IMG/VR virus record: IMGVR_UViG_2740892229_000013
Length of the DNA stretch: 38,746 bases
Reading direction: 5' to 3' (one strand)
Source of the DNA: a virus
Taxonomy: Duplodnaviria > Heunggongvirae > Uroviricota > Caudoviricetes
Part shown: positions 12,375-38,746 of the stretch, one piece after another
How positions within the stretch are numbered: position 1 is the stretch's first letter
Layout: each line of letters begins with the position of its first letter
Notes under the pieces: model-generated
Database searches by the model: none
The model's input: only the letters and a program-made list of their open reading frames with translations
Told to the model about the DNA's origin: nothing
Position numbers and translations under genes: made by a program

Positions 12375-12375
12375 T

Positions 12376-17775: not shown

Positions 17776-17787
17776 TAGGAGCAAGAA

Positions 17788-18708: not shown

Positions 18709-18716
18709 TCAATATT

Positions 18717-18734
18717 GGGCGGCGAAAGCCGCCC
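18717..18734 (+). other. Stable GNRA hairpin without U-tract
   Basis: GGGCGGC-GAAA-GCCGCCC. Confidence 0.6.
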
Positions 18735-18752
18735 ATGTAGAGAGAAAGCGTT

Positions 18753-20020: not shown

Positions 20021-20099
20021 CGCCAGTCGCATTATTTACTTTTGGTCTAAAGGGTTTTTGGCCAGTAATGAGAGCGACCGACAACAACAGGGAGAGAGC

Positions 20100-20908: not shown

Positions 20909-20909
20909 T

Positions 20910-21293
20910 GTGTTTATTGAAGCGTTTGCAAGTTTGATGCAGAAGGCAAAGATTGGCACGGTCGGGACTGACATTTTCTGTCACTACTTGCCTGCCAATG
21001 TGAAATCTGGCGTCCTGCTTATTAACCCAAATACCGGTATCAGCATCGATCATGAGCTACAGGGCTTTTATCTCGAATCATTCACAATCATTGTGCGTGG
21101 TTCGTCAATTACTACGACGGTTGAGAAAGCCAATAAAATCATTGAGATGTTTCCAGTAGAGGAAACGGAATCTGGTGGTGTTTATTTTCGACTTGTACGA
21201 CCGATGGCGATGCCAATCATTTATCCCAAAAATGATGGGGCATTAATAGAAGCAGGCATTCCTGTTGAATTTGCTGGCTATTTATTGAATTAA
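20910..21293 (+). CDS. Tail terminator/tail-completion protein (127 aa, GTG start)
   Basis: Track ORF 20787 trimmed to GTG 20910 (GAGAGG RBS), 2 nt after the upstream stop. Last gene before the major tail protein. Confidence 0.6.
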   Translation: MFIEAFASLMQKAKIGTVGTDIFCHYLPANVKSGVLLINPNTGISIDHELQGFYLESFTIIVRGSSITTTVEKANKIIEMFPVEETESGGVYFRLVRPMAMPIIYPKNDGALIEAGIPVEFAGYLLN

Positions 21294-21299
21294 CTCAAT

Positions 21300-21319
21300 T
21301 AGTAAGTATATACTTACTA
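21300..21319. promoter_or_regulatory. Perfect 20-bp palindrome TAGTAAGTATATACTTACTA
   Basis: Self-complementary on hand check. ~50 bp upstream of ATG 21368. The core GTAAGTATATACTTAC is 15/16 identical to 1955-1970. Confidence 0.65.
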
Positions 21320-21367
21320 TTAGCGCAATGAATGCGTAGAATTAACGGAAAAAGGAGTTTTCCATCA

Positions 21368-22114
21368 ATGTCTAATACCCATGTAAAAAACATCAAACTT
21401 GGTGCCTGTAAGGTGTCGTTTGGTGGTGTGGATTTGGGTTACACCAAAGGTGGTGTTCAGGTTGAAGTAGCCACTGAAACGCTGAAAGTCACCGTCGATC
21501 AGTTGGGGCAGACCGTAATTTCCGAATTAGTTCAGGGGCGCAACATTACCATCACCGCGCCTCTGGCTGAGTCTGTACTCCAAAACATGGTTGACCTGAT
21601 GCCTGGTTCTACTCTGAGCGAAGATGACAACTCTGTCACGATCACATCTGCACAGGGCGTTAACCTGATTGATGTGGCGAAGGAGCTGGTTCTGACTCCG
21701 CAGGACACCACCGACTATGTGTTGACCATCCCGAAAGCGGCAACCGCGGGCAACTTCACTATGACCTACCAGTCTGATGATGTTCGTGTGTTCTCTGTTC
21801 AGTTCAGCGCATACCCTGATGACGAAGGCGTTCTGGGAAGAATGAGCGGCCCTAAACCGGTAAAAACTGTGTCGATCGCACCGGAATCTCCAACCGTAAA
21901 AGCTGGAGAAACTGTGCAACTGACAGCCGAAATCACTCCAGCTGATGCCGCAGACAAAACCGGTGTTTGGGAATCCGAAGACCAGGAAAAGGCCACGGTA
22001 GATCAAACGGGTCTGGTACGTGGTGTGGCGCAGGGTTCTACAAATATCTCCTTCACCAGCAATAGCGGTGGTAAGAAGGCAACTAAATCAGTAACGATTA
22101 ACCCCGCAGATTAA
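21368..22114 (+). CDS. Major tail (tube) protein with C-terminal Big_2 Ig-like domain (248 aa)
   Basis: Track ORF 21332 trimmed to ATG 21368 (AAGGAG RBS). C-terminal VSIAPESPTVKAGETVQLTAEITPADAADKTGVWES... resembles the Ig domain of lambda gpV. Strong terminator follows. Confidence 0.85.
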   Translation: MSNTHVKNIKLGACKVSFGGVDLGYTKGGVQVEVATETLKVTVDQLGQTVISELVQGRNITITAPLAESVLQNMVDLMPGSTLSEDDNSVTITSAQGVNLIDVAKELVLTPQDTTDYVLTIPKAATAGNFTMTYQSDDVRVFSVQFSAYPDDEGVLGRMSGPKPVKTVSIAPESPTVKAGETVQLTAEITPADAADKTGVWESEDQEKATVDQTGLVRGVAQGSTNISFTSNSGGKKATKSVTINPAD

Positions 22115-22127
22115 TCAGTAATTAAGC

Positions 22128-22154
22128 AGAGGCTCAGGATGGGCCTCTCTTTTA
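22128..22154 (+). terminator. Rho-independent terminator
   Basis: AGAGGC (22128-22133) / GCCTCT (22143-22148), then CTTTT. Confidence 0.75.
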
Positions 22155-22169
22155 AAAGGATTTTAACCA

Positions 22170-22487
22170 ATGACCAAATTACTCGATCTCGATTCCATTC
22201 TGCCTCCGAAGAAACGCATCAAATTTGGCGGTCAGGAATATCCCATCGTTGAAATGACGGTAGGTCTGTTCGTTTCCATCAAGCAGATGGAAGGTAAAGA
22301 TCTCATGAACATGTCTCCTGTTGAGCAAGTGACAGCTTATGCAGATCTGGTTCGTAAGGTTATCCCTTCAGTACCTGACGAAGTTCTTGAAAAACTGACT
22401 GTTCCGCAACTCCAGCAGATCTTCACCTTCGCTATGGAAGTGATTGATGAAGAAAACGAAAAAGCGGCTGGCGAAGGGGCAAAGTAA
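22170..22487 (+). CDS. Tail assembly chaperone (gpG-like, 105 aa)
   Basis: Position between the major tail protein and the tape measure. Acidic C-terminus. Confidence 0.75.
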   Translation: MTKLLDLDSILPPKKRIKFGGQEYPIVEMTVGLFVSIKQMEGKDLMNMSPVEQVTAYADLVRKVIPSVPDEVLEKLTVPQLQQIFTFAMEVIDEENEKAAGEGAK

Positions 22488-22837
22488 TTTCCCGCGATGA
22501 ATCCGGGACAAGGACCGTCTCAATAGATCTCGGATTCTATTTCAGTCGTGTAGTTGCTCACTACGCCGTGTCGCCATTAGAGCTACTGAACGTTCCTCTC
22601 ACGATGTTCTGGATGCTCAGTCGCAATATAGACCGTCTGCGTGCGGAAGAGGATGTCCGCAACTTACAAGTCGCTCGTGCGTCCCAGGCGGATGGCGAGG
22701 CTGTGAAGGCGTTCATGGAGGGTTTGCAACTCAGGATTGGAAGACCAGTCGTAACAGATAAAGTCTACGATCCAAGCCAGGATAAGGCAGACCCTGACGC
22801 CAAAGAGCAACTGATGCAAATATTTGGCAGAGGATGA
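22451..22837 (+). CDS. gpT-like extension reached by -1 frameshift from the gpG-like frame
   Basis: By hand translation the -1 frame is open from 22451 through 22837. Slippery candidates are GAAAAAG (22458-22464) and CAAAG-TAA (22480-22487). No RBS precedes the track start at 22568. Confidence 0.6.
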   Translation, partial: RKRKSGWRRGKVISRDESGTRTVSIDLGFYFSRVVAHYAVSPLELLNVPLTMFWMLSRNIDRLRAEEDVRNLQVARASQADGEAVKAFMEGLQLRIGRPVVTDKVYDPSQDKADPDAKEQLMQIFGRG

Positions 22838-25800
22838 CAAGGGAATGTCACAAAACGTAGAGTTTATCCTGTCGCTGGAAGACAAACAGTTTACAGCGTC
22901 AATCGATCGTGCGGGGAAACTGCTTACTCGATTTGGTGAGCAGGTAACAAAGCCTGCTCAAAAAATCCAAACCTTTGAACGCTCTTTGGGTTCGGTCGCC
23001 CGTATCATTGGCGTTCTGGAAAGCAAGCTCGATTCTACGGCAGATAAACTACAGGATGTAGCTGCCGGTTTTGAGCTTGCTTCAGATGCTACGCGTAAAA
23101 TGCGTGGCAACATCACCAGCCTCAATTCTGGTCTTAAAGCCCTGATTGAGCGCGTCGATACGACAACTTCTTCAGTAGATAAACTCACCGCGTCATTGCG
23201 TAAAGTGCAATCAGAGCTAAATGATTTCTCTGATTGGGCGACCTATGCAAGCAAAAGCGCAAGCCGCTTTGGTACGGAGGTCAAAGAAGCCTCTGTGTCC
23301 GTGAGTGGCATGAATACGCGCCTTAATACCACGACGAAGCGACTCAGTAATTGGGGTGTCACAACGAGTCAGGCTGCCGAGGGACTGAAAAAGGTTCGTG
23401 AGCAGATGGACGAAGTTATCGGACGTCAGCAACTGATTAGCAAGCCGGTACGCGTTCGTACATCTGGAAGTGGCGATGGTGGTAGCGGGCGGCGTAGCGG
23501 CGCTTCTGGCCATAGCGGTAAAAGTAACGAAGGAGGTATGTTCTCTGGCCTTCGTGGCAACATTTTCCTGCTTGGCGAGATCGGAGATGCAGCCAGAACG
23601 GTTACTGACATCATGTTTGGGTGGCAGAAGCCTATTGTTGAAGCTGCGGCCGAAATGGAACGTATGCGGGTGATGCTTCGAGGGTTGAATAAGGAGAAGT
23701 CCAACCCGGGCCAGGCTGCCGCTGATGATATGAAGTACATCGTAGACATGGCTCAAAATGCGCCGTTCGCGATGCAGGCGTTAACAGACTCCTTCGTGAA
23801 GTTTCGTTCTGCTGGCTTAGATCCAACCGATGGTTCTCTGAAGGCGCTGGTGGACTCCGTTGCTCGTTTTGGTGGTGATAGTGAGCTGTTGAAACGTGCG
23901 GCTGTGGCCGTTCAGCAGATGTCCGGTAAGGGCGTTGTGTCAATGGAAGAGCTACGTCAGCAATTAGGTGAAGCCGTTCCTAACGCGATGCAGGCAATGG
24001 CAGACGCCGCAGGCATCACTATGGGGGAACTGACTAAAGCCGTTGCCAGCGGTACGGTTGAGGCAAAACAGGCGTTGTCTCTGATGTTTGTTGGTCTGCG
24101 TGCGGAGAATGAGAACGCAGCGAAAGACATGATGCAAACCTACACAGGTGCGCTGGCGCAACTTCAGACGTCATTCACGTTATTTGCTGATCGGGTTGGT
24201 CAGGCCGGATATCTGGATTCTCTATCGAAGGGGATGAAAGAACTGGCTTCAATCATGAATAGCGCCGAAGGGATTTCGTTTGCCAATTCTTTAGGTTCGG
24301 GGTTAACAACGGCAATCGATGGGTTGCGTCAGCTTGCTCAATGGTTAGCAAAGAACCAAGAGCTGGTAATTAATCTCGGTAAGGTCGTGGCCGCGATGGT
24401 TGCGTTCAAACTGATGCGAGCAGGGATCATGGGGGTAGTTGGCGCAGGCAGCCAGATGGTTAGCACCTTTGCCACGATGGCGACAGCCATACAGACTCCA
24501 TTTAACCTCGGCGCTACAGCAGTAACCCGATTCAATCGTGCGGCACGTATGGGGCTGGCTCCGATCCCCTCTCTTATTTTCGCCATCCGTGGGGCGATTA
24601 CGGGGCTTAAAGGCGCTTTTGCTGGATTAACGGCGTTCATTGCAGCAAACCCTATAGGGGCAGCATTTACAGTTGCCACTGTAGCTGTTGCTGGCCTAAT
24701 CACGTACATGACCATGCTCCGCAGCGAAACTTCAAAGGTCGTTGACGAGATTAGGAAAATACCAGAGGCGATGACAGCGGCCAAACGAGCACAGATGGCC
24801 GATCGCGCAGAAAAGCTCGAAAAGCAGATTCTCGCTGATCAACGAGCATTAAAAAATGGTGAGGGCGTTAATTACGTATCTAACTCTGCCGGTGTTATTA
24901 CTCACAAAGAGTCGAAGGCTGACATCGAAGCACGCCTGAAAAAAAATCAGGAAGAGTATCAAAAGATAACCGGCACGATAGCTCTTGGTGACGGCGCTGT
25001 AGCAAAGCGTTTGGCTAAAGAGGCTGCCGAATCTCAGATTGAGAAAATTCGAGCGGAAAACCAGATTTTCGCGGCAACATTCGTGAAAGCCCGGCAGGAG
25101 GCTCTGGATAAGATCCAGAAAATCAATGATGACGGTTCACTTTCAGATGACGAAAAGAACAAGCTATTGGCACCGTTACGTGAAACGGTAAACAAAAGCT
25201 ATCTGGAGCCTGCGCAAAAACTGGTTGATTCACTTTCTTCTCGTAAGAATGCGACCGAGAAGCAAATCGCGACTCTTAATGATCAGCTTGAAAAAGCCAA
25301 AAAGGATGGAAATACCGAGCAGATCCAGAAACTGCAAGGCAGTATTCGTGGTTATCAGGAGCATTTGGAAGCCGTTGCTCAGGAGCTGACTCAGGCAGAG
25401 TTCGAGAGAGATAACGCGGCCAAAACTGGTAAGGGCGTAATGTCAAACCAGGGGACTGTTCTTGGGTTAGGTACAACTGATAAAGCTGCTCAGAAGGCGC
25501 TGGCGCAATATATGCGAAACCAGATGGATTCTGCGACTTATCAACGTACTTTGCCTGACGGCACTCCGATGATGGACTTCGAAGGTAAGCCGATTATTGG
25601 GCCTAAACAACTCAAGACGCAGCTTAATTTGCAGAAAGCATCCAGCGCCAGCTCTCTGGAGAAAATGAGCGATGAAGAGCGTGCCGCAGCCATTGCTGCA
25701 CTGACTAAAGCTCGTGAACAGGATGCAGCAGCTGCCGAGAAAGCAGCCCAACGATCAGCTAACGCCTCGCAGCGTGCGGCCAAGAAGGAACAGGCAGCGC

Positions 25801-27398
25801 AACAGAAACTGGCAGCCGGATACCAGAAGGCTCTGGACAAAGCCGATCAGCTTATGGGGCAAATGGGTGAAAGCTCTAAGGCTACGGTATCGTTTGATCA
25901 GTCTCTTCGCGATACAACGAAATCGCTGACAGATTTGGCTAATGCGGTTCCTAACGAGTTCATCACTCAAGAGATGATCGACAAGGCGAAAAAACGTCTT
26001 GAAGACCTCAAAAATGCGACACCTGAATATCGCGAGATGTTTAATCGCCGCAATGTTGAGCAGATGATCTCCACTTGGGCACCGGAGGCGGATTCCATTA
26101 TTAGTGCTGGCTATACGCCGTCTCGCGAAGATAAAGTTGCTGATTTCGAAGACACCTACAACCGCAATCTCAAAGCGTTGATAGAACTTCGTGATAAGGC
26201 GTCTGATCCTAAAGTTGTGGCGCTTTATACAAAGAAAATCAATCAACTGATTGCTGCTGGCAATACCGCGCTTATTAAAGAGACGGGGACTGCGACGCAG
26301 AAGTTGGCACTGGAATACGAAAACTTGGCAGAGCAGATCGAAAGCACCTGGACTGATTTGTTTAGTGGCTTAACTGATGTCCTGACTGATTTCGTTATTA
26401 ACGGGAAGATGAGCTTCTCCAGCCTATCTCAGTCCATTTTGAAAGATATCACCAATATGGTCGTGAAGTCGCAAATCACGCTGCCTCTAATGAACATGTT
26501 GGGGATGGGAACCACCGCAGCTGGTAGTTCACAGAGTGGCAATTTGCTCACTGGAGTTGCTTCTGCCGTTGCCAATCAAGGTGTACGAATGGGCAACACT
26601 GTTAATGGCGACAAGTCGGTAGGAGAAGCCACGAAGGAGACGTCCAGTTCGGTAACTGGATTGGGGCAAACAACACAGCAGACCACCAGCGCAATTGGCA
26701 CAGCAACAAATGCGATTGGTAGCTGGGTATCGGGGCTATTTGATAGCACCGAAGCCAAAGATGCCGAGACAAAAGCCGTGAAGGACTCCATCTTCTCGAT
26801 GCAGAACCTCAGCTCTGTTACCGGCGCGCTGTCTGCCGCGTTTGCAATGCTTGGAGCTAATGCTTCCGGCTCTGGTAATAAGTGGTTGAGTTTTGGAGCA
26901 ACGGTTGCATCTGGTCTTGTTTCAGCTTGGGCTGGCGGTGGTTTCGACAGCTTGACATCAAGCTCTGCTAAAACCGCAACCAGCAGTGTGGCTGACGGAA
27001 CTAAAGGCATTCCTGCAATCCCGAAGTTTGCAAATGGAGGAATATTCGGAAAAGACGGCGTGATCCCGCTCCGGGCATACCAGAAAGGCGGTATTGCTAA
27101 CTCGCCTCAATTAGCGTTGTTTGGGGAAGGTTCTATGAATGAGGCGTATGTTCCATTGCCTGATGGCCGAACAATCCCTGTAACGCTCAGTACCGATGGT
27201 ATGAGTGGAGGCGGAAATGTTCTTTCTCCTGTATCAATTGAGATCAACGTCCATAGTGACGGTAGCACAACTGAATCCGGCGATACAGAAAGCATATGGA
27301 ACAATGCCGCTCAACGGATGAAAGCAATCGCGCTTGAGACTATCGCTCAAGAGAAACGCCCTGGCGGATCACTCAACCCAAACACTCAACGTAACTAA
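22824..27398 (+). CDS. Tail tape measure protein (1524 aa; alternative start 22845)
   Basis: Size, position, long helical regions, a hydrophobic central segment, and a lambda gpH-like C-terminal motif ALFGEGSMNEAYVPLPDGR. Confidence 0.95.
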   Translation: MAEDDKGMSQNVEFILSLEDKQFTASIDRAGKLLTRFGEQVTKPAQKIQTFERSLGSVARIIGVLESKLDSTADKLQDVAAGFELASDATRKMRGNITSLNSGLKALIERVDTTTSSVDKLTASLRKVQSELNDFSDWATYASKSASRFGTEVKEASVSVSGMNTRLNTTTKRLSNWGVTTSQAAEGLKKVREQMDEVIGRQQLISKPVRVRTSGSGDGGSGRRSGASGHSGKSNEGGMFSGLRGNIFLLGEIGDAARTVTDIMFGWQKPIVEAAAEMERMRVMLRGLNKEKSNPGQAAADDMKYIVDMAQNAPFAMQALTDSFVKFRSAGLDPTDGSLKALVDSVARFGGDSELLKRAAVAVQQMSGKGVVSMEELRQQLGEAVPNAMQAMADAAGITMGELTKAVASGTVEAKQALSLMFVGLRAENENAAKDMMQTYTGALAQLQTSFTLFADRVGQAGYLDSLSKGMKELASIMNSAEGISFANSLGSGLTTAIDGLRQLAQWLAKNQELVINLGKVVAAMVAFKLMRAGIMGVVGAGSQMVSTFATMATAIQTPFNLGATAVTRFNRAARMGLAPIPSLIFAIRGAITGLKGAFAGLTAFIAANPIGAAFTVATVAVAGLITYMTMLRSETSKVVDEIRKIPEAMTAAKRAQMADRAEKLEKQILADQRALKNGEGVNYVSNSAGVITHKESKADIEARLKKNQEEYQKITGTIALGDGAVAKRLAKEAAESQIEKIRAENQIFAATFVKARQEALDKIQKINDDGSLSDDEKNKLLAPLRETVNKSYLEPAQKLVDSLSSRKNATEKQIATLNDQLEKAKKDGNTEQIQKLQGSIRGYQEHLEAVAQELTQAEFERDNAAKTGKGVMSNQGTVLGLGTTDKAAQKALAQYMRNQMDSATYQRTLPDGTPMMDFEGKPIIGPKQLKTQLNLQKASSASSLEKMSDEERAAAIAALTKAREQDAAAAEKAAQRSANASQRAAKKEQAAQQKLAAGYQKALDKADQLMGQMGESSKATVSFDQSLRDTTKSLTDLANAVPNEFITQEMIDKAKKRLEDLKNATPEYREMFNRRNVEQMISTWAPEADSIISAGYTPSREDKVADFEDTYNRNLKALIELRDKASDPKVVALYTKKINQLIAAGNTALIKETGTATQKLALEYENLAEQIESTWTDLFSGLTDVLTDFVINGKMSFSSLSQSILKDITNMVVKSQITLPLMNMLGMGTTAAGSSQSGNLLTGVASAVANQGVRMGNTVNGDKSVGEATKETSSSVTGLGQTTQQTTSAIGTATNAIGSWVSGLFDSTEAKDAETKAVKDSIFSMQNLSSVTGALSAAFAMLGANASGSGNKWLSFGATVASGLVSAWAGGGFDSLTSSSAKTATSSVADGTKGIPAIPKFANGGIFGKDGVIPLRAYQKGGIANSPQLALFGEGSMNEAYVPLPDGRTIPVTLSTDGMSGGGNVLSPVSIEINVHSDGSTTESGDTESIWNNAAQRMKAIALETIAQEKRPGGSLNPNTQRN

Positions 27399-27404
27399 CT
27401 ATCG

Positions 27405-27424
27405 ACTGCCCCGACCGGGGCAGT
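27405..27424 (+). other. Stable 9-bp hairpin without U-tract
   Basis: ACTGCCCCG (27405-27413) / CGGGGCAGT (27416-27424). Confidence 0.6.
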
Positions 27425-27440
27425 CTCACAAGGATGTGAG

Positions 27441-27776
27441 ATGGAAAGACAAACGTTTAATTGGTATCCAGATTACGAATCTGAAAAAAGCGTAAAACCG
27501 AATGTAACTGTACTTAATTTTGGTGATGACTACGAGCAGCGACAGGCTCAAGGTCTTAATCGTATTAAAGAAGAATGGTCGTTAACCTTTACCAGATCAT
27601 ACAACGAAATTAATGCAATCGATGACTTCCTGACTGAGCGATCAGGCGTTGAATCGTTCTATTGGGTTAATCCAAGAGGCAAGCAGATTGTAGTTGTATG
27701 TGACAGTCATACGGTCAAGCGATATCAGGGGTACTGTGTCTTAACTGCTACATTCAGACAAGTATTTGAGGCTTAA
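27441..27776 (+). CDS. Minor tail protein, lambda gpM-like (111 aa)
   Basis: Recalled similarity to lambda M (FGDDYEQR, SFYWVNP motifs). First gene after the tape measure. Confidence 0.9.
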   Translation: MERQTFNWYPDYESEKSVKPNVTVLNFGDDYEQRQAQGLNRIKEEWSLTFTRSYNEINAIDDFLTERSGVESFYWVNPRGKQIVVVCDSHTVKRYQGYCVLTATFRQVFEA

Positions 27777-27783
27777 GTATCTG

Positions 27784-27808
27784 GATAAGTAAGTACTAAT
27801 TTACTATC
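27784..27808. promoter_or_regulatory. Imperfect palindrome GATAAGTAAGTACTAATTTACTATC (GTAAGTA family)
   Basis: Arms GATAAGTAA / TTACTATC with one indel. Intergenic between the M-like and L-like genes. Confidence 0.4.
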
Positions 27809-27858
27809 ATTGTGGCGCTGACAGGATGTTAGCGCTTACTTATTTTAAGGATGAAACA

Positions 27859-28557
27859 ATGGGAATTAAAGCTGATATTCAGAGCTTATCTCCCTCTGCA
27901 CTCATTGAGTTGTTCGTATTGGATATGTCGAACACAACTTCAGGGGGGAAGCTATTCTTCCACGCCGGAACAAACGAACTGATGCAACCGGTCGTCTGGC
28001 AAGGAGTGACATACGAGCCGTGGCCAATCAAAGCATCAGGCTTTGACAAAACTGGCCAGGGAACGTTGCCACGTCCAAAAATTCAGGTATCGAACTTTGC
28101 CGGAACCGTCTCTGCGGAAGTTCAGGCGAACGACGATCTTGTTGGCTGCCGCATTATTCGCAAGATGACGCTGGCTCGCTTCCTCGATGCCGTTAATTTT
28201 AAAGACGGCAACCCAACAGCAGATCCAAACCAACATTTCCCGGATGAAATGTGGTTTATCGAACAGAAAACTCTCGAAACTCATCAGGTTGTCGAGTTTG
28301 AATTGTCCAGTGTGTTCGATTTGATGGGGGTGCAACTGCCGTATCGTCAGATCATTAAAAACACCTGCCCGTGGAAATACCGAGGGCCAGAATGCGGCTA
28401 TACCGGTCCATATTTCGACAAAAATAACCAGCAGACGTCTATGTCTGGTGCTGATTACTGCACAAAACGTTATGACGCCTGTAATGCGCGTCGGAATTAT
28501 TTTGCCGACGGTGTGATCCATTTTGGCGGATTTATTGGAGCTACGCGGTATGGGTAA
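27859..28557 (+). CDS. Minor tail protein, lambda gpL-like (232 aa)
   Basis: Track ORF 27826 trimmed to ATG 27859 (AAGGA RBS). Cys cluster CPWKYRGPECGY...C...C as in lambda L. Confidence 0.9.
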   Translation: MGIKADIQSLSPSALIELFVLDMSNTTSGGKLFFHAGTNELMQPVVWQGVTYEPWPIKASGFDKTGQGTLPRPKIQVSNFAGTVSAEVQANDDLVGCRIIRKMTLARFLDAVNFKDGNPTADPNQHFPDEMWFIEQKTLETHQVVEFELSSVFDLMGVQLPYRQIIKNTCPWKYRGPECGYTGPYFDKNNQQTSMSGADYCTKRYDACNARRNYFADGVIHFGGFIGATRYG

Positions 28558-29347
28558 TAAAGCAATCCCTGAGCTTGGCTCTGACGTTATGCAGCAAATC
28601 TATCTCTGCGCCATAAATCGCTACCCTAATGAAGCGTGTGGCTTTCTGGTTAGAACTAATGGCGACAAATATCGCTTTATGGAAGCGCGGAATGTTTCGG
28701 AGAACCCGCAGAACACTTTTGTAATGCACGTTGACGACATTATGGCGGCAGAGGATGCGGGTGATGTTATCGCAATCTGGCATTCACATACTGATGAATC
28801 AGCAGAAGCATCTGATGCCGATCGTGCAGGCTGCGAAGCGACGGAAGTTCCGTGGATGATTCTGGCTATTCGCAAGAATGTTGAGGGAGATGCCCCTTTC
28901 CATTTTAGCGAGATGAATGTGATCACTCCTGATGGTTTCGAAATGCCATACCTGGGCAGACCGTATGTATTTGGCGTATTTGATTGCTGGATGTTGTGTC
29001 GGGACTATTTGAAGCGTGAGTTTAACGTCGAACTAAACCCGAACGCACACCTGCATATTCCATCGTGGTACACCGGCGATAACGACATTCTCGATCAGAA
29101 CTACCGAAACGAAGGATTGGTACGGCTTGCGCCCGGAACAGAACCTCAACGTGGGGACGTCTTCTTTATCCAATACGGGAAAATGCCTGACCACTGCGCG
29201 GTTTATATCGGCGATGGAATGATTCTTCATCACCAGATCGACCGCCTAAGTTGTCGTGCTTATTACGGCGGAATGTATCAGAAACATACGACGCATCACT
29301 TGCGTCACAGAGACTTGCTCAAGGGAGATGAGACGTGTCTGAGTTAG
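28550..29347 (+). CDS. Tail tip protein, lambda gpK-like (MPN/JAMM + NlpC/P60; 265 aa)
   Basis: Track ORF 28523 trimmed to ATG 28550 (GGAG RBS). JAMM motif HSHTDESAEASDAD. C-terminal Cys...His pattern typical of NlpC/P60. Confidence 0.9.
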   Translation: MGNKAIPELGSDVMQQIYLCAINRYPNEACGFLVRTNGDKYRFMEARNVSENPQNTFVMHVDDIMAAEDAGDVIAIWHSHTDESAEASDADRAGCEATEVPWMILAIRKNVEGDAPFHFSEMNVITPDGFEMPYLGRPYVFGVFDCWMLCRDYLKREFNVELNPNAHLHIPSWYTGDNDILDQNYRNEGLVRLAPGTEPQRGDVFFIQYGKMPDHCAVYIGDGMILHHQIDRLSCRAYYGGMYQKHTTHHLRHRDLLKGDETCLS

Positions 29348-29925
29348 TTCATGTGCAGCTTGGCGGCCCTATGGCCAAACATTTTGGCCGCCACTGGCAT
29401 CTAAAGGTGCGTAATACAAAACAGGCTCTGGATTTAATTGAGGCCAACAAGCCTGGGTTTAAAGCATGGATGAAGCGCAATATCAAAACCTATGACAGAT
29501 ACCACATCCAGATCACCAATAAACAGGGCCACAAGTGGTCTGTGGACGAGAGTGAATATCAGATGATGGGGCAGTCTGACAATATTGCAAAAATCCGCAT
29601 TACCCCTGTTCCGCGAGGAAGTGGTGGATCTGCTTTTGGATGGTTTCAGACGGTTGTTGGAGCAGTATTAATGGTTGCCTCGATATGGGTGCCCGCTCTT
29701 GCGCCTCTCGGTTTGTCACTGATGATGGGCGGTATAGCGCAAATCATATCTCCGCAAGCCACTAACGAAAGTGTGAGGCAGGCGGATAACTCGAACTCTT
29801 ATTACTTTGATGGACCTCAAAACACAACAAACCAGGGGAACCCTGTACAGCTTATCTATGGCGAGGAAATTTTAGTTGGCTCACAGGTCGTGAGTTCTTC
29901 TATCACCATCGACCAGCTTATGTAA
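29335..29925 (+). CDS. Tail assembly protein, lambda gpI-like (196 aa, GTG start)
   Basis: Position between the K-like and J-like genes. Central hydrophobic segment and conserved C-terminal NPVQLIYGE. Confidence 0.85.
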   Translation: MSELVHVQLGGPMAKHFGRHWHLKVRNTKQALDLIEANKPGFKAWMKRNIKTYDRYHIQITNKQGHKWSVDESEYQMMGQSDNIAKIRITPVPRGSGGSAFGWFQTVVGAVLMVASIWVPALAPLGLSLMMGGIAQIISPQATNESVRQADNSNSYYFDGPQNTTNQGNPVQLIYGEEILVGSQVVSSSITIDQLM

Positions 29926-29942
29926 TCAAGGATTTTTTGGAC

Positions 29943-32900
29943 ATGGAACAGTTCAAGAAGAAAAAATTACCGCTTCTTATTGCCGGTGCTGGTGGCAAGA
30001 AAAGTAAAAGCTCCAGCCGTACCCCGGTTGAAGCTGATGATACTGTCAATTCTCGTGCTATGGCAGCCATCCTCGACCTTCTTGGCGAGGGGGTTATCGG
30101 TGGCCTGGTAAATGGCGCAAAGTCGATCTTCATCGACGATTTACCGATCTTGAATGAAGATGGCTCTTCCAACTTCAGCGGTATTACATGGGATTTTCGT
30201 GACGGCTCACAAGATCAGACGCCAATGGCTGGTTTTGATTTTGTCGAAACGCCTAAGTCCGTAAATATTCAGCTTAAAAAAACACACGACGTTACGGTTT
30301 CAATCGATAACGATGAAGCTGATCGCGTTCGTGTCATCATGAAATTCCCCTCTTTACGTAGCGTTGATAAAAGCTCTGGCGATACAAATGGCACTACGGT
30401 GAAGTACAAATTCCAGATCGCCAACGCAGACGCAACATTTTCTGATGTAGTGGCAGAAGGTGAGAAAAGCGTTGATATCACGCTAACGGCAAAGAAAACC
30501 GGCGTGTATTACCGTAGCTATGAGCTGAAACTGCCTAAGCCTGGTCGTGCATACAAGGTTAGGGTGATTCGTCTTACAGATGATAATAGTAGCCAGTACC
30601 TCTACAACGACACATGGGTTGATTCCATCGGTGAGATTGTCGACACGCCAATGAACTACCCTAACTCTGCTCTTGTTGGCTTGAAGGTCAATTCAGAGCA
30701 GTTTGGTAGCACAATGCCTTCCCGTTCGTATTTGGTGCGCGGTATCAAAATCCGAGTACCGTCAAACTACAACGAATACACCAATACTTATGTCGGCGTA
30801 TGGGACGGTACTTTTAAGCTGTTGTCTTCTTCAAACCCTGCGTGGATTCTCTACGATTTGCTTACCAATACTCGGTATGGTCTTGGGCAATTTGTGTCGG
30901 AATCCATGATTGACCTCGGCCAGCTCTACCAGATTGGTCGATATTGTGACGAAGAGGTCGATGATGGCTTTGGGGGTAAAGAGAAACGCTTTGCAATCAA
31001 TACGCAGATCACCAGTCGACAAGACGCATACCGATTAATTCAGGATATTGCCGGTGCATTCCGCGGCATGGTGTTTTGGGCTGGTGGCATGGTTAACATC
31101 ATGCAGGATAGCCCATCAGATCCGGTAATGATGTTTACCAACTCCAACGTCAAAGATGGACTGTTTACCTATAAAGGTTCTGCGCGTAAAGATCGCCCAT
31201 CCGTTGCGCTCGTAACCTACAACAACAAGGAGGACGGTTATAAGCAAAACATCGAGTACGTTGAAGATCAGGACGCAATGCGCCGTTATGGTGAGCTTAA
31301 AACAGAAGTCGTAGCATTTGGGTGTACAAGCCGAGGCCAGGCTCACCGAGTAGGTTTGTGGCTTTTGTATACCGCCAGAATGGAGTCGGATGTAATTACA
31401 TTTACTGCCGGCTTAGACGCCTCATTTCTGATGCCTGGTGAAACCGTTCTGATTCAGAACAAATATCGTGCAGGTAAACGTAACTCCGGTCGAATTGTGG
31501 AGTTTGCCAAAAACAGCATCACTCTCGATGCGCCTGTGTCGTTAGCTAAAAGCGGCAGCTTTATTCGGATATTGAATCAGGAAGGCAAAATCGTTGAACG
31601 CGATGTTCTTGAAACTGGCGAAAACATAACAAAGGTTACGTTTTCAAAAGCCCTGTCGTCAGCGGAAACGCCTGTTTTGAACGGTGTCTGGACAATTACA
31701 GAACCAGATCTCGAACCTATGCGCGTTCGCATCGTTAACATCGCGCAGGGGGAAACGCCGGGTAGCTTTGACATCACCGCTGTTGAGAACAATCCGTCTA
31801 AATATGAGGCAATCGACAATGGTGCAACGCTGATCCCGCAGAATACGACGGTATTGGACCCGACTTACTCCAAGCCATCTAATTTGCAAATCACTGAAGG
31901 GACTTATCTCTCAAGCCCGGGCAACCTGTCAGTAAAACTGACTGCAACATGGGAAGGGAAATCTCCAGAGTATTGGATCAGTTGGCGACGTTCTGATGAA
32001 AACAATGTATCGAACTGGCAATCGGCGCGTGTAACCGAAGAGCAATACGAAATCGTTAATGTCGCGGAGAATGGACGCTACGACTTCCAACTGTATGCGG
32101 TTTCATTCAACGGTAAAAAAACAGAGATTATCAGTACCGTTTATCAGGTGTTGGGCACAATGACACCGCCGGATGCCCCAACGTCATTAACGGCCGTTGG
32201 AGACTATCGTAATGTGATACTGAATTGGGTTAATCCAGATTCGGTAGACCTTGATCACATTAATGTTTACGCATCCCAGACCAACAATCTGGATACGGCG
32301 AAACTGATCGCAGAGTCTGCAAGCACCACCTTTACACATGCTGGTCTTGGGGATAGCGAAACGTGGTATTACTGGGTTCGAGCATCGAACAAGCGAGGTA
32401 TGTTAAGCCCTCCGAACTCAAACTTGGGTACAGAGGCGACAACTCGCGATGTACTGTCGTTCCTGGCTGGCAAAATTACATCTTCCGAGCTTGGTCAGGC
32501 TCTGCTTGAGGACATCAACAGCAAAGCCTCTCAAGAAGCAGTTGACGAGTTAAATGAGCATATCAACCAGAGCGTCGAATCTTTGGAGGGGGCGGTAAAC
32601 GACGTTAAGGAAGATATAGCTGAATTAGATAAGCAGTTCAGCGATAACCTCGCGGATTTTGAAATAAAATTCAACGAGCGTAGCGATGCTTTGGAGAACG
32701 CACAAACCGAGCTTAAAGGTGAGGTTTCGGCAACGATCGACAAGGTCAATGAAGCGTTTGAAAAAATTGATGCTACTGATGCTGCAATTGTTGAAATCGA
32801 AAACACCGTATCTGAACACGATAAAGCTCTCGCTAATACAGTCGAGGCAATAAAGGCTGCAAGAGATGAAGCGGCGGCTCTTATTGCTAAGGAAAGCGAG

Positions 32901-34568
32901 GCTCGTGTTGAAGGCGATGCTGCAAACGCTAAACAACTGGAAGTGTTGCAGTCAACGGTAGAGGAAAGCTCCGCTGCCGTTGAAGAAATGAAAAAGACGG
33001 TTGCAGAGGTCGATCGTGCCAGTGCAGAACTGACTACGAACATTGAGGCGTTAGCCAAAACAAATATTGACCTGGCTCTTCGTCAAGATGAAGACCAGCA
33101 CAAGCAGATGGTCAATAACGCGAAGATCGCAACAACACAGAAAACCTTTGCTGATGATATGTCTGCAATGGCCACGAAGGTTGAGGAAATTCGCGTAGAA
33201 ATTGGCGAAGACATTAAGGCCAGTATTCTGGAAGAGTCCACCGCTCGTGCCGATGGCGATGAAGCGTTGGCAAAGCGTGTCACTCAGCTGCAATCTAAGT
33301 TTGAAGGAGATATCAGCTCGGCGATTAGTACAGAGCAGGAGGCTCGTACATCTGCCGATGAAGCTCTGACGACACAGATCACTCAGCTTGAGTCGAAAGT
33401 AAGCAACGATATCGTCGCAGCTATTAAGGAAGAGCAAGAAGCCCGAGCAACGGAAGATTCGGCTCTGGCAAGCCAGATCACCCAACTTCAGGCAAAGGTT
33501 GACGGTGATATATCCGCTGCCATCACTCAGGAGCAGGAGGCCAGAGCAAGTGCTGACCAGGCGCTCTCACGAGAAATTAACAGCCTGCGAGCACAAACCG
33601 GAACTGATATTGCCGCAGCGGTTGCTGTAGAGACAAAGGCAAGGACTGATGCCGATAGTGCATTGTCCACTCAGATTACGTCTCTTACAGCAAAAGCTAA
33701 TGATCTCGAGGCATCTCTTGCCAGAGAAACAACGGCTCGTGCTGATGGTGATACCGCTTTAACAAAAGAGGTTTCAAGTTTAAAAGCACAGACAGCGAAA
33801 GATATTAGTGCGGCCGTTGCAGTTGAAACGCAGGCTCGAACTGATGCTGACTCGGCGTTGTCGTCTCAGATCACCAAGCTGACCTCTCAATACAAAGAGG
33901 ATATTAAAGCGGCTGTAGCAACCGAAACGAAAACGCGTACAGAGCAAGATGCTGCATTGGCGACTCAAATCACAAACTTAGAGTCTCAAACGGCAGCCAA
34001 CATTTCCGCGGCGGTAACAACTGAAACGACAGCGAGAACGCAGGCAGATAATGCTCTGAGTGGGCGAATCGATACTCTGAAAGCAGAGGTGGATGGAAAT
34101 ACCGCGACAATTCAACAGCAGGCAACAGCTATTGCTGATACCAACAAAAAAGTGTCAACCGCGTGGACGTTGAAAATGGAAACTTCAACGAGCGGAGGGC
34201 AGAAGTATGTTGCTGGTATTGCGCTTGGTATCGACACCACTGGCCTTTCTCAGTTTTTGGTGCAGGCTGACAGGTTTGGTTTGGTCAACTCTGTTAACGG
34301 GAAGATCACCACGCCATTTGTTATCGAAAACAGTATCGCCTATATGAATGGTGCGTATATCAAGGATGGCACAATCACCAATGCAAAAGTAGGCGATCTG
34401 CAATCTACCAATTTTGTTAGCGGTAGATCTGGATGGCGGTTCGGCAAAAATGGAACGCTTGAGATCAACGGTAATAGCGGGGGTAATGGGCGACTGGTCA
34501 TAAATGGTCAGCGGATTGACGTTTATGACGATAACAACGTCCTACGAGTAAGAATTGGCCTTCTGTAA
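29943..34568 (+). CDS. Tail tip / host-specificity protein, lambda gpJ-like (1541 aa)
   Basis: Track ORF begins at TTG 29937; ATG 29943 is preferred. N-terminal ~830 aa are J-like, including an FN3-like region. A long coiled-coil repeat follows, then a C-terminal globular domain. Confidence 0.95.
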   Translation: MEQFKKKKLPLLIAGAGGKKSKSSSRTPVEADDTVNSRAMAAILDLLGEGVIGGLVNGAKSIFIDDLPILNEDGSSNFSGITWDFRDGSQDQTPMAGFDFVETPKSVNIQLKKTHDVTVSIDNDEADRVRVIMKFPSLRSVDKSSGDTNGTTVKYKFQIANADATFSDVVAEGEKSVDITLTAKKTGVYYRSYELKLPKPGRAYKVRVIRLTDDNSSQYLYNDTWVDSIGEIVDTPMNYPNSALVGLKVNSEQFGSTMPSRSYLVRGIKIRVPSNYNEYTNTYVGVWDGTFKLLSSSNPAWILYDLLTNTRYGLGQFVSESMIDLGQLYQIGRYCDEEVDDGFGGKEKRFAINTQITSRQDAYRLIQDIAGAFRGMVFWAGGMVNIMQDSPSDPVMMFTNSNVKDGLFTYKGSARKDRPSVALVTYNNKEDGYKQNIEYVEDQDAMRRYGELKTEVVAFGCTSRGQAHRVGLWLLYTARMESDVITFTAGLDASFLMPGETVLIQNKYRAGKRNSGRIVEFAKNSITLDAPVSLAKSGSFIRILNQEGKIVERDVLETGENITKVTFSKALSSAETPVLNGVWTITEPDLEPMRVRIVNIAQGETPGSFDITAVENNPSKYEAIDNGATLIPQNTTVLDPTYSKPSNLQITEGTYLSSPGNLSVKLTATWEGKSPEYWISWRRSDENNVSNWQSARVTEEQYEIVNVAENGRYDFQLYAVSFNGKKTEIISTVYQVLGTMTPPDAPTSLTAVGDYRNVILNWVNPDSVDLDHINVYASQTNNLDTAKLIAESASTTFTHAGLGDSETWYYWVRASNKRGMLSPPNSNLGTEATTRDVLSFLAGKITSSELGQALLEDINSKASQEAVDELNEHINQSVESLEGAVNDVKEDIAELDKQFSDNLADFEIKFNERSDALENAQTELKGEVSATIDKVNEAFEKIDATDAAIVEIENTVSEHDKALANTVEAIKAARDEAAALIAKESEARVEGDAANAKQLEVLQSTVEESSAAVEEMKKTVAEVDRASAELTTNIEALAKTNIDLALRQDEDQHKQMVNNAKIATTQKTFADDMSAMATKVEEIRVEIGEDIKASILEESTARADGDEALAKRVTQLQSKFEGDISSAISTEQEARTSADEALTTQITQLESKVSNDIVAAIKEEQEARATEDSALASQITQLQAKVDGDISAAITQEQEARASADQALSREINSLRAQTGTDIAAAVAVETKARTDADSALSTQITSLTAKANDLEASLARETTARADGDTALTKEVSSLKAQTAKDISAAVAVETQARTDADSALSSQITKLTSQYKEDIKAAVATETKTRTEQDAALATQITNLESQTAANISAAVTTETTARTQADNALSGRIDTLKAEVDGNTATIQQQATAIADTNKKVSTAWTLKMETSTSGGQKYVAGIALGIDTTGLSQFLVQADRFGLVNSVNGKITTPFVIENSIAYMNGAYIKDGTITNAKVGDLQSTNFVSGRSGWRFGKNGTLEINGNSGGNGRLVINGQRIDVYDDNNVLRVRIGLL
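33210..34100 (+). repeat. Nine tandem 33-aa (99-nt) degenerate repeats inside the J-like gene
   Basis: Units of the form DIxAA-IxxEQEARxxADxALxxQITxLxxKxxx. One unit is 32 aa. Confidence 0.8.
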
Positions 34569-34601
34569 TGTAGAAAAAAATATTTATATCGGTAAAAATA
34601 A

Positions 34602-34617
34602 GTAGGTACATACTTAA
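34602..34617. promoter_or_regulatory. Palindrome-family copy GTAGGTACATACTTAA
   Basis: 14/16 identical to 1955-1970. 44 bp upstream of ATG 34661, followed by hairpin GGTGGGC/GCCCACC. Confidence 0.55.
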
Positions 34618-34660
34618 TGGTGGGCAAGGATAGCCCACCAAATCAAGGAGCATATTCAAC

Positions 34661-35623
34661 ATGTGGTACAGGGAAGGTACTATCACATTTACACAGGGCA
34701 GCAATACTCTGGTTGGGGCAGGGACAGCCTGGAACGTAACAGCTAATGGTGTGTTGCCGGGGATGATCGTCATTGGCCCCGACAATAAGCTGTATGAGAT
34801 CAAGCGCGTAACCAGTGATACGAACATTGTTCTCTCAGAACCTTATACCGGCGAAACTCAGTCTGAAGTTCCGTGCCGAATCATTACGACCTATGAAGGC
34901 GACTTAACACAGTTTAGCGCGCGCTTTACAGCACTAATGTCGCGTATGTCGGCTGATTCCAAGTCCATGCGCAGTTGGTTGACTGCTCTGGATGAGGTGA
35001 CAATCGAGCGTGAAGACGGTACAGAAGTGACCGTTAAGCCGCTAATGCAGATCGTCAACGAGCACAACGAAAACGTTGAGTGGTATAAAAATAACACTGA
35101 CGCGATTGATGCTGCTGGCGACAAAGCTCGTGAGGCGGCGGCCAGTGCTGCCGCAGCAGCAGAAAGCGCCAATATCGCTGGAGAAAAAGCCTCTCAAGCG
35201 TCTCAAAGTGCATCCGCTGCAGAGTCCTCAAAAAGCGCGGCGGCCACCAGTGCCGGTGCCGCGAAAACGTCTGAAACGAATGCTGCAGCGTCACAAAAAT
35301 CTGCAGCCACTTCTGCATCCACCGCGACCACGAAAGCGTCAGAAGCTGCCACCTCAGCCCGGGATGCGGCGGCCTCAAAAGAGGCAGCGAAATCATCAGA
35401 AACGAGCGCAGCCTCGAGCGCCAGTAATGCCGCTTCCTCGGCAACGGCGGCAGGAAATTCCGCGAAGGCGGCAAAAACGTCCGAGACGAACGCCAGGTCT
35501 TCTGAAACGGCAGCGGGACAGAGCGCCTCGGCTGCGGCAGGCTCAAAAACAGCGGCTGCGTCGTCTGCCAGTGCAGCGTCAACAAGTGCCGGGCAGGCCT
35601 CAGCCAGTGCCACCGCCGCCGGA
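34661..35623 (+). CDS. Tail fibre protein, 5' part (truncated by scaffold gap)
   Basis: AAGGAG RBS. N-terminus MWYREGTITFTQGSNTLVGAGTAW is typical of phage fibre N-termini. From ~35212 it carries the Stf-type Ala/Ser-rich repeat. The ORF runs into the N-run. Confidence 0.85.
35212..35623 (+). repeat. Stf-type Ala/Ser-rich repeat block (copy in the phage fibre gene)
   Basis: Near-identical at nucleotide level to 36331-36372, 36455-36815 and 36827-37165 (AAESSKSAAATSAGAAKTSETNAAASQKSAATSAS...). Confidence 0.85.
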
Positions 35624-35633
35624 NNNNNNNNNN
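35624..35633. other. Scaffold gap (10 N)
   Basis: Run of n characters. The flanking sequences belong to different genes (fibre repeat versus lom 3' end). Confidence 1.
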
Positions 35634-35708
35634 GTCGCTTATGAAGGCTCCGGCAGTGGTGACTGGCGCACTGACGGGTTCATCGTGGGTGTTGGTTATA
35701 AATTCTGA
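35634..35708 (+). pseudogene. lom: 3' terminal fragment of a lom (Ail/Lom outer-membrane protein) gene, 24 codons
   Basis: Translation VAYEGSGSGDWRTDGFIVGVGYKF* matches my memory of the lambda Lom C-terminus. The 5' part is lost in the gap. Confidence 0.85.
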
Positions 35709-35734
35709 TTAGCCAGGTAACACAGTGTTATGAC

Positions 35735-35761
35735 AGCCCGCCGGTTCAGGCGGGCTTTTTT
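35735..35761 (+). terminator. Rho-independent terminator
   Basis: AGCCCGCC (35735-35742) / GGCGGGCT (35749-35756), T-run 35756-35761. Confidence 0.9.
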
Positions 35762-35772
35762 GTGGGGTGAAT

Positions 35773-38746
35773 ATGGCAGTAAAAATTTCAGGTGTACTGA
35801 AAGACGGCACAGGAAAACCGGTACAGAACTGCACAATCCAGCTGAAAGCAAAACGTAACAGTACCACGGTGGTGGTGAACACGCTGGCATCTGAAAATCC
35901 GGATGAAGCCGGGCGTTACAGTATGGACGTTGAGTACGGTCAGTACAGCGTTATTCTGTTGGTGGAAGGATTCCCGCCGTCACATGCCGGGACCATCACA
36001 GTGTATGAAGATTCCCGACCCGGTACGCTGAATGATTTTCTCGGTGCCATGACGGAGGATGATGCCCGTCCGGAGGCACTGCGCCGTTTTGAACTGATGG
36101 TGGAAGAGGTGGCGCGTAACGCGTCCGCGGTGGCACAGAACACGGCAGCCGCGAAGAAGTCAGCCAGCGATGCCGGCACATCAGCCCGTGAGGCGGCAAC
36201 CCATGCGACTGATGCTGCAGGCTCAGCACGTGCAGCCAGCACATCAGCCGGGCAGGCCGCGACGTCGGCTCAGTCAGCGTCTTCCAGCGCAGGAACGGCA
36301 TCAACAAAGGCTACTGAAGCATCAAAAAGTGCTGCCGCTGCAGAGTCCTCAAAAAGCGCGGCGGCCACCAGTNNNNNNNNNNCGCAGCCAGCACGTCAGC
36401 CGGACAGGCCGCGTCGTCGGCTCAGTCAGCGACTTCCAGCGCAGGAACGGCATCAACAAAGGCCACTGAAGCATCAAAAAGTGCTGCCGCTGCAGAGTCC
36501 TCAAAAAGCGCGGCAGCTACCAGTGCCAGTGCCGCGAAAACGTCAGAAACGAATGCGGCAGCGTCACAACAATCAGCAGCCACTTCTGCATCCACCGCGA
36601 CTACGAAAGCGTCAGAAGCTGCCACCTCAGCCCGGGATGCGGCGGCTTCAAAAGAGGCGGCAAAATCATCAGAAACGAACGCATCCTCGAGCGCCAGTAG
36701 CGCAGCTTCCTCGGCAACAGCGGCAGGAAATTCCGCGAAGGCGGCAAAAACGTCAGAGACGAACGCCAGGTCTTCTGAAACGGCAGCGGGACAGAGCGCC
36801 TCGGCTGCGGCAGGCNNNNNNNNNNGGCAGCGTCACAAAAATCTGCAGCCACTTCTGCATCCACCGCGACCACAAAGGCGTCAGAAGCTGCCATCTCAGC
36901 CCGGGATGCGGCGGCCTCAAAAGAGGCAGCGAAATCATCAGAAACGAACGCATCATCAAGTGCCAGTAGTGCAGCTTCCTCGGCAACGGCGGCAGCAAAT
37001 TCTGCGAAGGCGGCAAAAACGTCCGAGACGAACGCCAAGGCTTCTGAAACGGCAGCGGGACAGAGCGCCTCAGCTGCGGCAGGCTCAAAAACAGCGGCTG
37101 CATTATCTGCCAGTGCCGCGTCAACAAGTGCCGGGCAGGCCTCAGCCAGTGCCACCGCCGCCGGAAAATCGGCAGAAAGTGCTGCATCGTCTGCTTCAAC
37201 AGCCACAACGAATGCTGGCGAAGCCGCTGTACAGGCCAGCGCAGCAGCGAGGTCAGCTTCCGCAGCGAAGACATCCGAGACGAACGCGAAAGCGTCGGAA
37301 ACCAGCGCAGAATCCTCAAAAACGGCAGCGGCATCGTCCGCCAGTTCGGCGGCGTCATCGGCATCATCGGCGTCTGCTTCAAAAGATGAGGCGACCAGAC
37401 AGGCGTCAGCAGCGAAGAGCAGCGCCACGACGGCATCCACGAAAGCAACAGAGGCGGCAGGCAGTGCGACGGCGGCAGCACAGAGCAAAAGTACGGCGGA
37501 ATCCGCGGCAACGCGCGCCGAGACAGCGGCAAAACGGGCAGAGGATATTGCATCCGTCGTGGCGCTTGAGGATGCGAGCACGACGAAAAAGGGGGTAGTA
37601 CAGCTCAGCAGTGCGACCAACAGTACGTCTGAAACGCTGGCGGCAACGCCAAAGGCAGTAAAATCAGCCTATGACAATGCAGAGAAACGTCTGCAGAAAG
37701 ACCAGAACGGCGCTGATATACCCGACAAGGACCGCTTCCTGAGTAACATTAATGTTTACAGCAAAGGTGAAGTGGATCAGAAAAAGGGGATGCGATACGT
37801 TGTGGTAAATGCCCCGGCGGGTGTCCAGGAAGGTAAATATTATCCGTTAGTGATAAAAAGGAATGACAGCCATCGGGCATCCCGCGTTGTCATTTCAACG
37901 CCAAGTCGCTCAGCTAATCACAGAATGAATAATTGTGAGTTTAATGGTTTTGTTTGCGCAGGCGGCTGGACGGACCGGGGTAGCTATGCCTGTGGTATGT
38001 TCTGGGCTTATTCAACATCGGAACGCGCTATTCATTCCATTCTGATGAGTAATAAAGGCGATACCGTAGACAGCGTATTCTATATAGAAGGTGGGGCATT
38101 TCCCGTAGAGGTCTTTTTAGAAGAAGGTCTCTCCGTTACTGCACCTGCTTCTGATTATATTGTTGCTGAAACGACTTATAAATTTGGCGCAACTGATCCT
38201 TATTCTGAATCAGTTGCGGTAAATTTAATTTTAGATTTTAAACAAGGTAATGGATTTTATAGTTCATATCCTGTTTTGAGTAAGTCAGACATTAGCGGGA
38301 ATAAGATTTACGCTAATGATGAAGTTATTGTCCGTAGTCAGAACGCGTTAAGGATGATTGCAGGTGATTACGGTGTCATATGGCGAAATGATGGAGCAAA
38401 TACTTACTTGCTCATGACTGATAAAGGCGACCAGTACGGTGGCTGGAACGGTCTTCGACCATTTGCAGTAAATAACGCAACAGGTGAAGTGACGATCAAT
38501 ACACCACTTAATTCTCCTAAGGGGATTAAGGGAAATTCTGATACAGCTACGAAACTTCAGACAGCAATAAAAATATCTGGTGTTTCGTTTGATGGTTCTA
38601 CTGATATCACTTTAACCGCTGCGCATGTTGCTGCTTTTGCCAGAAGAGCAACGGATACGTATGCCGATGCGGATGGGGGCGTTCCATGGAATGCCGAATC
38701 AGGCGCTTACAATGTCACCCGCTCTGGCGACAGCTATATTCTGGTT
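35773..38746 (+). CDS. stf: Lambda Stf-like side tail fibre, broken by two scaffold gaps and open at the window end
   Basis: N-terminus MAVKISGVLKDGTGKPVQNCTIQLKA... matches the recalled lambda Stf. True frames by hand: frame 1 for 35773-36372, frame 3 for 36384-36815, frame 2 for 36827-38746. The distal part carries the fibre repeat GNSDTATKLQTAIKISGVSFDGSTDITLT. Confidence 0.85.
36373..36382. other. Scaffold gap (10 N)
   Basis: Run of n characters. The frame changes across it. Confidence 1.
36816..36825. other. Scaffold gap (10 N)
   Basis: Run of n characters. The frame changes across it. Confidence 1.

Follow-up and report, generated by a model that had tools for sequence, protein, structure and literature searches.

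Background

Does the phage that fills most of the IMG/VR virus record IMGVR_UViG_2740892229_000013 sit in a bacterial chromosome beside the lom and stf (side tail fibre) genes of a lambdoid prophage, as the letters read from left to right, or have pieces of different molecules been written one after another? We call the whole stretch of DNA that was analysed, 38,746 nucleotides, the window. It has exactly three runs of N, each 10 bases long (gaps 1, 2 and 3), and these split its right end into four contigs: A (1-35623), B (35634-36372), C (36383-36815) and D (36826-38746). The phage sequence lies in contig A, which breaks off inside a tail-fibre gene, and the lom and stf sequences lie on the other side of gap 1. 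The original prediction, made from the letters of the window, held that the gaps join unrelated genes. Comparison with finished genomes leads us to the same answer: the apparent junction between phage and prophage is very probably an assembly artefact.

Results

The sequence that follows the gaps reads again, with single-nucleotide polymorphisms (SNPs), protein-coding segments that are already present before them. This had been a ground for suspicion, and it is confirmed at 92-95% identity, far beyond chance. Positions 36232-36372 of contig B match 36384-36524 of contig C at 95.0% identity (E = 2e-61), and 36557-36815 of contig C match 36826-37084 of contig D at 92.3% (E = 2e-108). Contig A takes part as well: its positions 35285-35623 match 36827-37165 of contig D at 94.4% (E = 2e-152), and its positions 35185-35542 match 36458-36815 of contig C at 92.7% over 358 bp (E = 1e-153). 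With overlaps of 141 bp (C-B), 259 bp (C-D) and 339 bp (A-D), the neighbouring contigs are paralogous or overlapping, not consecutive.

The sequence that they have in common is a central region rich in alanine and serine (Ala/Ser-rich), which occurs both in the fibre gene of the phage-plasmid described below and in lambdoid Stf genes, with a nucleotide identity of about 92-95%. Exact stretches common to the fibre paralogues measure about 40-140 bp. The final 48 bases of contig A are exactly 37118-37165 of contig D, the final 38 bases of contig B recur exactly in contig A, and the final 60 bases of contig C are exactly 35483-35542 of contig A. At the 5' ends of contigs B and C no exact match to other contigs of the kind seen at the 3' ends was found. 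Beyond the end of contig A, 14-17 further bases are common to all seven reference fibre genes, and after those bases the references diverge three ways, into a D type, a plasmid type and a C type. Tandem Repeats Finder reports a 269-bp repeat in two copies at 36555-37084 of the window and none in finished stf genes; this "tandem repeat" is created by the scaffold.

The reading frame also changes from contig to contig. In translation the open frames are frame 1 from 35773, frame 3 from 36384 and frame 2 from 36827, which matches the succession of frames that had been described across the second and third N runs. This order simply reflects arbitrary 10-N spacers. All three gaps are placeholders: the real distance between contigs B and D is 33 bp in finished genomes, as against 453 positions in the scaffold.

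What, then, is the proper relation of the three contigs on the right? In the NCTC9113 chromosome, the lom-stf junction matches contig B at 98.8% identity. Contig D matches stf in NCTC9113 at 99.84%, beginning there 33 bp past the end of contig B and in the same frame. There are 147 complete genomes in which a single place covers at least 80% of 35634-38746, and in the 20 best-scoring of them this place spans 2,689-2,692 bp, where the window has 3,113 positions. The finished chromosomes with the best scores have contigs B and D side by side, with no contig C between them; 33 bp are missing from the window and the frame is kept. Over its distal 1,581 bp (37166-38746), contig D matches five finished chromosomes at 100%. 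Judged by these finished copies, B and D are one stf gene. Relatives that are 98-100% identical to them have the gene order J-lom-stf-tfa.

Contig C comes from elsewhere. All of its bases (433/433 bp) are identical to the stf of the prophage adjoining ydfJ in the chromosome of strain 2013C-4991, and it differs from the B/D-type stf at 27 of 432 positions (93.75% identity). It covers the equivalents of the last 141 bp of contig B, of the missing 33 bp and of the first 259 bp of contig D. Since contig C overlaps B as well as D, a physical position between the two is impossible. The earlier suggestion of paralogous repeat contigs placed in series is supported by all the comparative evidence, with B and D as one gene and C as another allele. 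The accompanying warning that the middle of stf is unreliable can be refined: the middle can be recovered as B, 33 bp and D. Several Stf-type fibre genes had been expected in the source genome, and we infer that at least three fibre genes are involved (one of A, one of B and D, one of C).

By its collinearity with known replicons, contig A is a piece of an SSU5-type phage-plasmid and not of a lambdoid prophage. SSU5 and its relatives are phage-plasmids, that is, temperate phages that are maintained as plasmids (Pfeifer et al. 2021, PMC7969092). Positions 55-35623 are collinear with plasmid pAVS0225-A at 99.2%, plasmid unnamed3 of strain 2013C-4991 matches positions 55-18000 at 99.97%, and a search of complete Escherichia coli genomes gave 99.3% identity between 10700-35623 and circular plasmids of ~110 kb. 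As for phages, Escherichia phage CMS-2020a is 98.3% identical over 1-25000, CMS-2020a and Escherichia phage Cyrano (~108 kb) are 94-95% identical over 29000-35623, and Salmonella phage SSU5 is 79% identical over 75% of the latter interval, which holds tail genes. According to the annotation of relatives, the genes of contig A include ParB-like, helicase, terminase, portal, capsid and tape-measure genes, the tail-tip genes M/L/K/I/J and the 5' end of the fibre gene. Two open reading frames (ORFs), 9025-9726 and 9690-10394, correspond to genes of pAVS0225-A that are annotated as ParB/RepB/Spo0J and ParB/Srx. Plasmid maintenance is represented on contig A by this ParB-like pair, and the replication genes lie outside the window.

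A search of complete E. coli genomes located the terminase-to-capsid module of contig A (12415-17714) in 240 of them, at 250 places; every one of these is on a plasmid, and none is on a chromosome of the 240 carriers. The carrier replicons range in size from roughly 100 to 230 kb, with most at 100-120 kb; the extrachromosomal state is known from these replicons of finished relatives and not from the source strain itself. Since the phage part is found only on plasmids, an integrated prophage would not be expected.

We can now return to the join between contigs A and B. The ORF from 34661 translates up to gap 1 and ends ...ASATAAG at 35623. This fragment of 963 nt is 99.8% identical to 7162-8124 of the reference plasmid L003 and 96.8% identical to phage Cyrano, whose fibre gene has 4,026 nt; its counterpart in plasmids L003 and L008 is an open frame of ~1,390-1,440 codons. 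In the reference plasmids no lom follows the fibre gene of ~4 kb; small genes, cor and lysis genes stand there. In the window, the 24 codons after gap 1 read VAYEGSGSGDWRTDGFIVGVGYKF and are followed by a stop codon, and they align with the end of the annotated Ail/Lom coding sequence in three references, L004 (NCTC9113-type stf), L005 (the prophage beside ydfJ in 2013C-4991) and L006. Translation and the match to PF06316 bear out the earlier reading that gap 1 connects the fibre gene, in mid-repeat, to the last 24 codons of lom. A terminator and the start of stf had been read after lom, and indeed a hairpin with a T run, an ATG at 35773 that coincides with the annotated start in the references, and a full-length PF08400 domain in the first 134 residues of stf are found there.

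The join thus has a fibre repeat on one side and the final 24 codons of lom on the other, with no homology across it, and for this reason homologous recombination would not yield it. Among 5,426 complete E. coli genomes, none has the fibre fragment of contig A beside lom. This absence of the adjacency, together with a phage part found only on plasmids, makes the fusion of two replicons by the scaffold the parsimonious reading. The original prediction had called the linkage of the phage to lom and stf unproven; the same two results, 0 of 5,426 genomes and 250 places that are all on plasmids, speak for that judgement. The coordinates of all features are collected in Table 1.

Table 1. Features of the window (positions are those of the 38,746-nt stretch)
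Feature	Position	Strand	Evidence or remark
ISEc12 terminus (IS21-family), ~58 bases	1..58	.	multi-copy repeat at the left end of the window
Contig A, phage-plasmid DNA, ~35.6 kb	59..35623	+	collinear with ~110-kb E. coli plasmids and SSU5-type phages
Phage-plasmid tail-fibre gene, first 321 codons	34661..35623	+	severed inside the Ala/Ser-rich region common with lambdoid Stf
Gap 1 (10 N)	35624..35633	.	unsupported join of phage-plasmid and lambdoid prophage
lom, last 24 codons and stop	35634..35708	+	Pfam PF06316 (Ail_Lom) 176-199 of 199, E = 1.5e-10
Terminator-like hairpin with T run, between lom and stf	35735-35756 (feature-list bounds 35735..35766)	+	
stf (side tail fibre), first 200 codons, end of contig B	35773..36372	+	PF08400 1-134 of 134, E = 5e-73
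Gap 2 (10 N)	36373..36382	.	N run between contigs B and C
Contig C, 433-bp paralogous stf fragment, misplaced between B and D	36383..36815	+	100% to the stf of another prophage
Gap 3 (10 N)	36816..36825	.	N run between contigs C and D
Contig D, stf continuation, 640 open codons running off the window	36826..38746	+	99.84% to L004/L006; Gp34_trimer domain

A few further observations concern the individual contigs. The left end of the window is itself a repeat. In two finished records the sequence flanking istA/istB of ISEc12 is an exact match to bases 1-60, the stretch of the ISEc12 terminus occurs in 5,127 places in 1,720 complete genomes, and identity to the phage-plasmid references begins at base 55-59. 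Near-identical plasmids have no insertion sequence (IS) at the site where the ISEc12 end joins phage-plasmid sequence in the window. The left edge is either an ISEc12 insertion in this phage-plasmid or another contig end bounded by a repeat. Further into contig A, five indels in 18 kb separate the window from the plasmid of 2013C-4991, whose annotation marks frameshifts in the portal and DUF6651 genes. These indels and frameshifts suggest long-read indel errors in that plasmid reference.

In the finished reference plasmids, NCBI's annotation pipeline PGAP labels the fibre gene a pseudogene with an incomplete N-terminus; the loci to which this label and the frameshift marks refer are 7627-11319 in L003, 4597-8430 in L007 and 1483-3964 in L009. 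In L003 the fibre frame is open from an ATG (~1,390 codons) despite this label. Mechanical ORF calling on the window gives an ORF of 327 amino acids at 34661-35644 and another of 400 amino acids at 35767-36969. Both ORFs continue straight across N runs, and in the output of gene callers they would appear as fictitious proteins, truncated or chimeric fibres.

Base-by-base comparison shows three SNPs within the first 70 bp of contig D (36874, 36877 and 36894) that are absent from references L002, L004 and L006; the remaining 1,852 bp of the contig are identical to L004 and L006. A 40-mer carrying the three SNPs was found in none of three public contig collections (viral, genome and metagenome). 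The cluster may represent private variation, or it may stem from an error of the consensus in the collapsed repeat. Neither tRNA nor tmRNA genes were found in the window.

Possible origin of the scaffold

How might such a scaffold come about? Suppose that the source strain or sample holds at least three fibre genes with a common Ala/Ser-rich centre: that of the SSU5-type phage-plasmid (contig A), the stf of a lambdoid prophage (contigs B and D) and the stf of another such prophage (contig C). If the assembler could not thread reads through the common stretches, each contig would have stopped there. Ambiguous read-pair or graph links through the common fibre region may then have connected A, B, C and D, and a scaffolder or a contig-ordering step may have linearised the branched graph with fixed placeholders of 10 N. 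In doing so it would have put two short contigs (739 and 433 bp) into the "gap" between the larger ones.

If this is correct, the real molecules would look quite different from the window. One would be an extrachromosomal phage-plasmid of ~110 kb, whose fibre gene would continue for ~3 kb beyond the content of the window. Another would be a chromosomal J-lom-stf-tfa module in which contig B is followed by 33 bp and then by contig D. The third would be the stf of a second prophage, of which just 433 bp have entered the window.

Alternative explanations

We hold it to be probable, at roughly 0.88, that four contigs have been strung across fibre repeats and that the apparent phage/prophage junction is an artefact of assembly and not biology. 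Several points weigh against this. The mechanism of the artefact is one that we infer, and we draw the conclusion from a comparison with finished genomes. The overlaps at the contig ends (38, 48 and 60 bases, and ~58 at the IS) indicate no single k-mer size. Contig B is a mosaic: its positions 35634-36092 are exact to L005 and its positions 36001-36372 are exact to L004, with an overlap of 92 bp common to both. This could be natural variation or recombination, and it could also be a further assembly chimera in which the assembler crossed over between alleles. Finally, some SSU5-type plasmids have an A-type fibre N-terminus followed by D-like sequence (91.6%), so that a genuine continuity from A to D is biologically possible.

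The last point can be extended into a different account of the locus. The fibre gene of the phage-plasmid may truly run from A into D after a recent exchange of its distal, receptor-binding module with a resident lambdoid prophage. Contig D would then be present twice in the source and collapsed into one contig, and only B and C would be wrongly inserted. We consider this unlikely, although several observations would suit it: the last 48 bases of A are exact in D, a fusion of A with D from 37166 onwards keeps the frame, the fibre of plasmid pRHB23-C03_2 is encoded by one open ORF in which an A-type N-terminus (95.5%) is followed by collinear D-like sequence (91.6%, 1,916 bp), and 7 PLSDB plasmids cover at least 80% of the distal part of D. 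However, 37166-38746, which is 100% identical to five chromosomal stf genes, is 94.7-95.6% identical to the ~110-kb plasmids. The closest relatives of contig A (99.8%) differ from the 18th base past its end (AAATCGGCAGAAAGTGCC... in the L003 type), and the 3' part of B and contig D carry the same chromosomal allele. If the hybrid gene were nevertheless real, the link from A to D would capture a host-range module in the act of being exchanged between an extrachromosomal phage-plasmid and an integrated prophage in one cell. An improbable variant of the artefact itself concerns the source of contig C, which might be a second strain or contaminant in the sample and not a second prophage of the same genome. 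The mosaic of two alleles in contig B would agree with a mixed sample, as would the presence of only 433 bp of the second stf. Against it stand the multiplicity of such genes in E. coli (median 2, maximum 15 places per genome) and the example of 2013C-4991, which carries a near-identical phage-plasmid and a C-type stf together in one genome.

Two other accounts would leave more of the scaffold intact. In one of them, recombination at lom/stf has carried the phage-plasmid into a lambdoid prophage of the chromosome, as a cointegrate or by integration, and the order A-B is physical. The fibre sequence that both elements share at ~94% could support recombination, and with an IS end at the left edge of the window an IS-mediated rearrangement is conceivable. 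Yet the join falls at non-homologous positions, in a fibre repeat on one side and at the C-terminus of Lom on the other. It is seen in none of the 5,426 finished genomes, no chromosomal structural module occurs in the 240 carriers, and the join consists of 10 placeholder N, as do the two neighbouring gaps, which are demonstrably wrong. We find such a cointegrate very hard to credit, and integration of the phage part was rejected as unlikely on two grounds, the 0 chromosomal copies in the 240 carrier genomes and the non-homologous join. The other account, in which B, C and D are consecutive parts of a single stf with an expanded Ala/Ser region, seems to us scarcely credible. A region of low complexity could in principle expand, and Tandem Repeats Finder does score the overlap of C and D as a 269-bp repeat in two copies. 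But contig C is 100% identical to the allele of another prophage and has 27 differences in 432 positions from the allele of its neighbours, finished stf genes have no such repeat, and no best-scoring finished genome has the extra ~420 bp. A tandem duplication in stf was rejected on the exact identity of C to the allele of another prophage and on the lack of the repeat in finished genes.

Implications

If paralogous contigs have indeed been placed in series, what does it matter? A literal annotation of the scaffold would yield a 36-kb "prophage" integrated beside lom and stf. It would also overlook the phage-plasmid replicon of ~110 kb to which the phage part belongs. The long, near-identical fibre segments of SSU5-type phage-plasmids and Stf genes make these loci systematically unassemblable with short reads. 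The main value of the case is one of caution; its biological residue is modest and known in kind.

That residue concerns the fibre modules. The sequences concerned are 35185-35623 and 36826-38746 of the window and 4501-7040 of L008: phage-plasmid fibres and lambdoid Stf share the Ala/Ser-rich centre at about 94%, and some of the ~110-kb plasmids (e.g. pRHB23-C03_2) also share the entire D-like distal part, at 91.6-95.6%. This sharing suggests that fibre modules are exchanged between phage-plasmids and integrated prophages. The mosaicism of tail-fibre genes is well known, and the shared fibre segments are an instance of it.

Comparison with known systems

The two biological parts of the window each resemble something familiar. 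Contig A is collinear with the phage-plasmids of the SSU5 supergroup in Enterobacteriaceae (e.g. SSU5, Cyrano and CMS-2020a), being 79% identical to SSU5 and 94-98% identical to Cyrano and CMS-2020a, and it matches ~110-kb plasmids of E. coli at 99-99.97%. Like them it has ParB-like genes and a full siphovirus-like structural module. It differs from them in that the window has only about one third of the element, in the ISEc12 end at its left edge, and in the fibre gene, which is severed after 321 codons.

Contigs B and D resemble the J-lom-stf-tfa module of lambda type: the C-terminus of Lom, the terminator and a stf with PF08400 follow one another in the same order and with the same spacing. 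In contrast to that module, the window lacks J and the 5' part of lom, and its stf is broken by two placeholder gaps and a foreign contig of 433 bp.

The arrangement as a whole resembles the repeat-induced scaffolding errors of short-read assemblies. N runs of equal length, re-read segments that bear SNPs, contig ends in exact repeats, frame breaks at the gaps and an order that is absent from finished genomes are all features of such errors. Only one thing is particular here: the repeat spans a plasmid replicon and chromosomal prophages, with the result that two replicons are fused. The junction is very probably not a real feature but a standard repeat-induced scaffolding error, all elements of which are already known.

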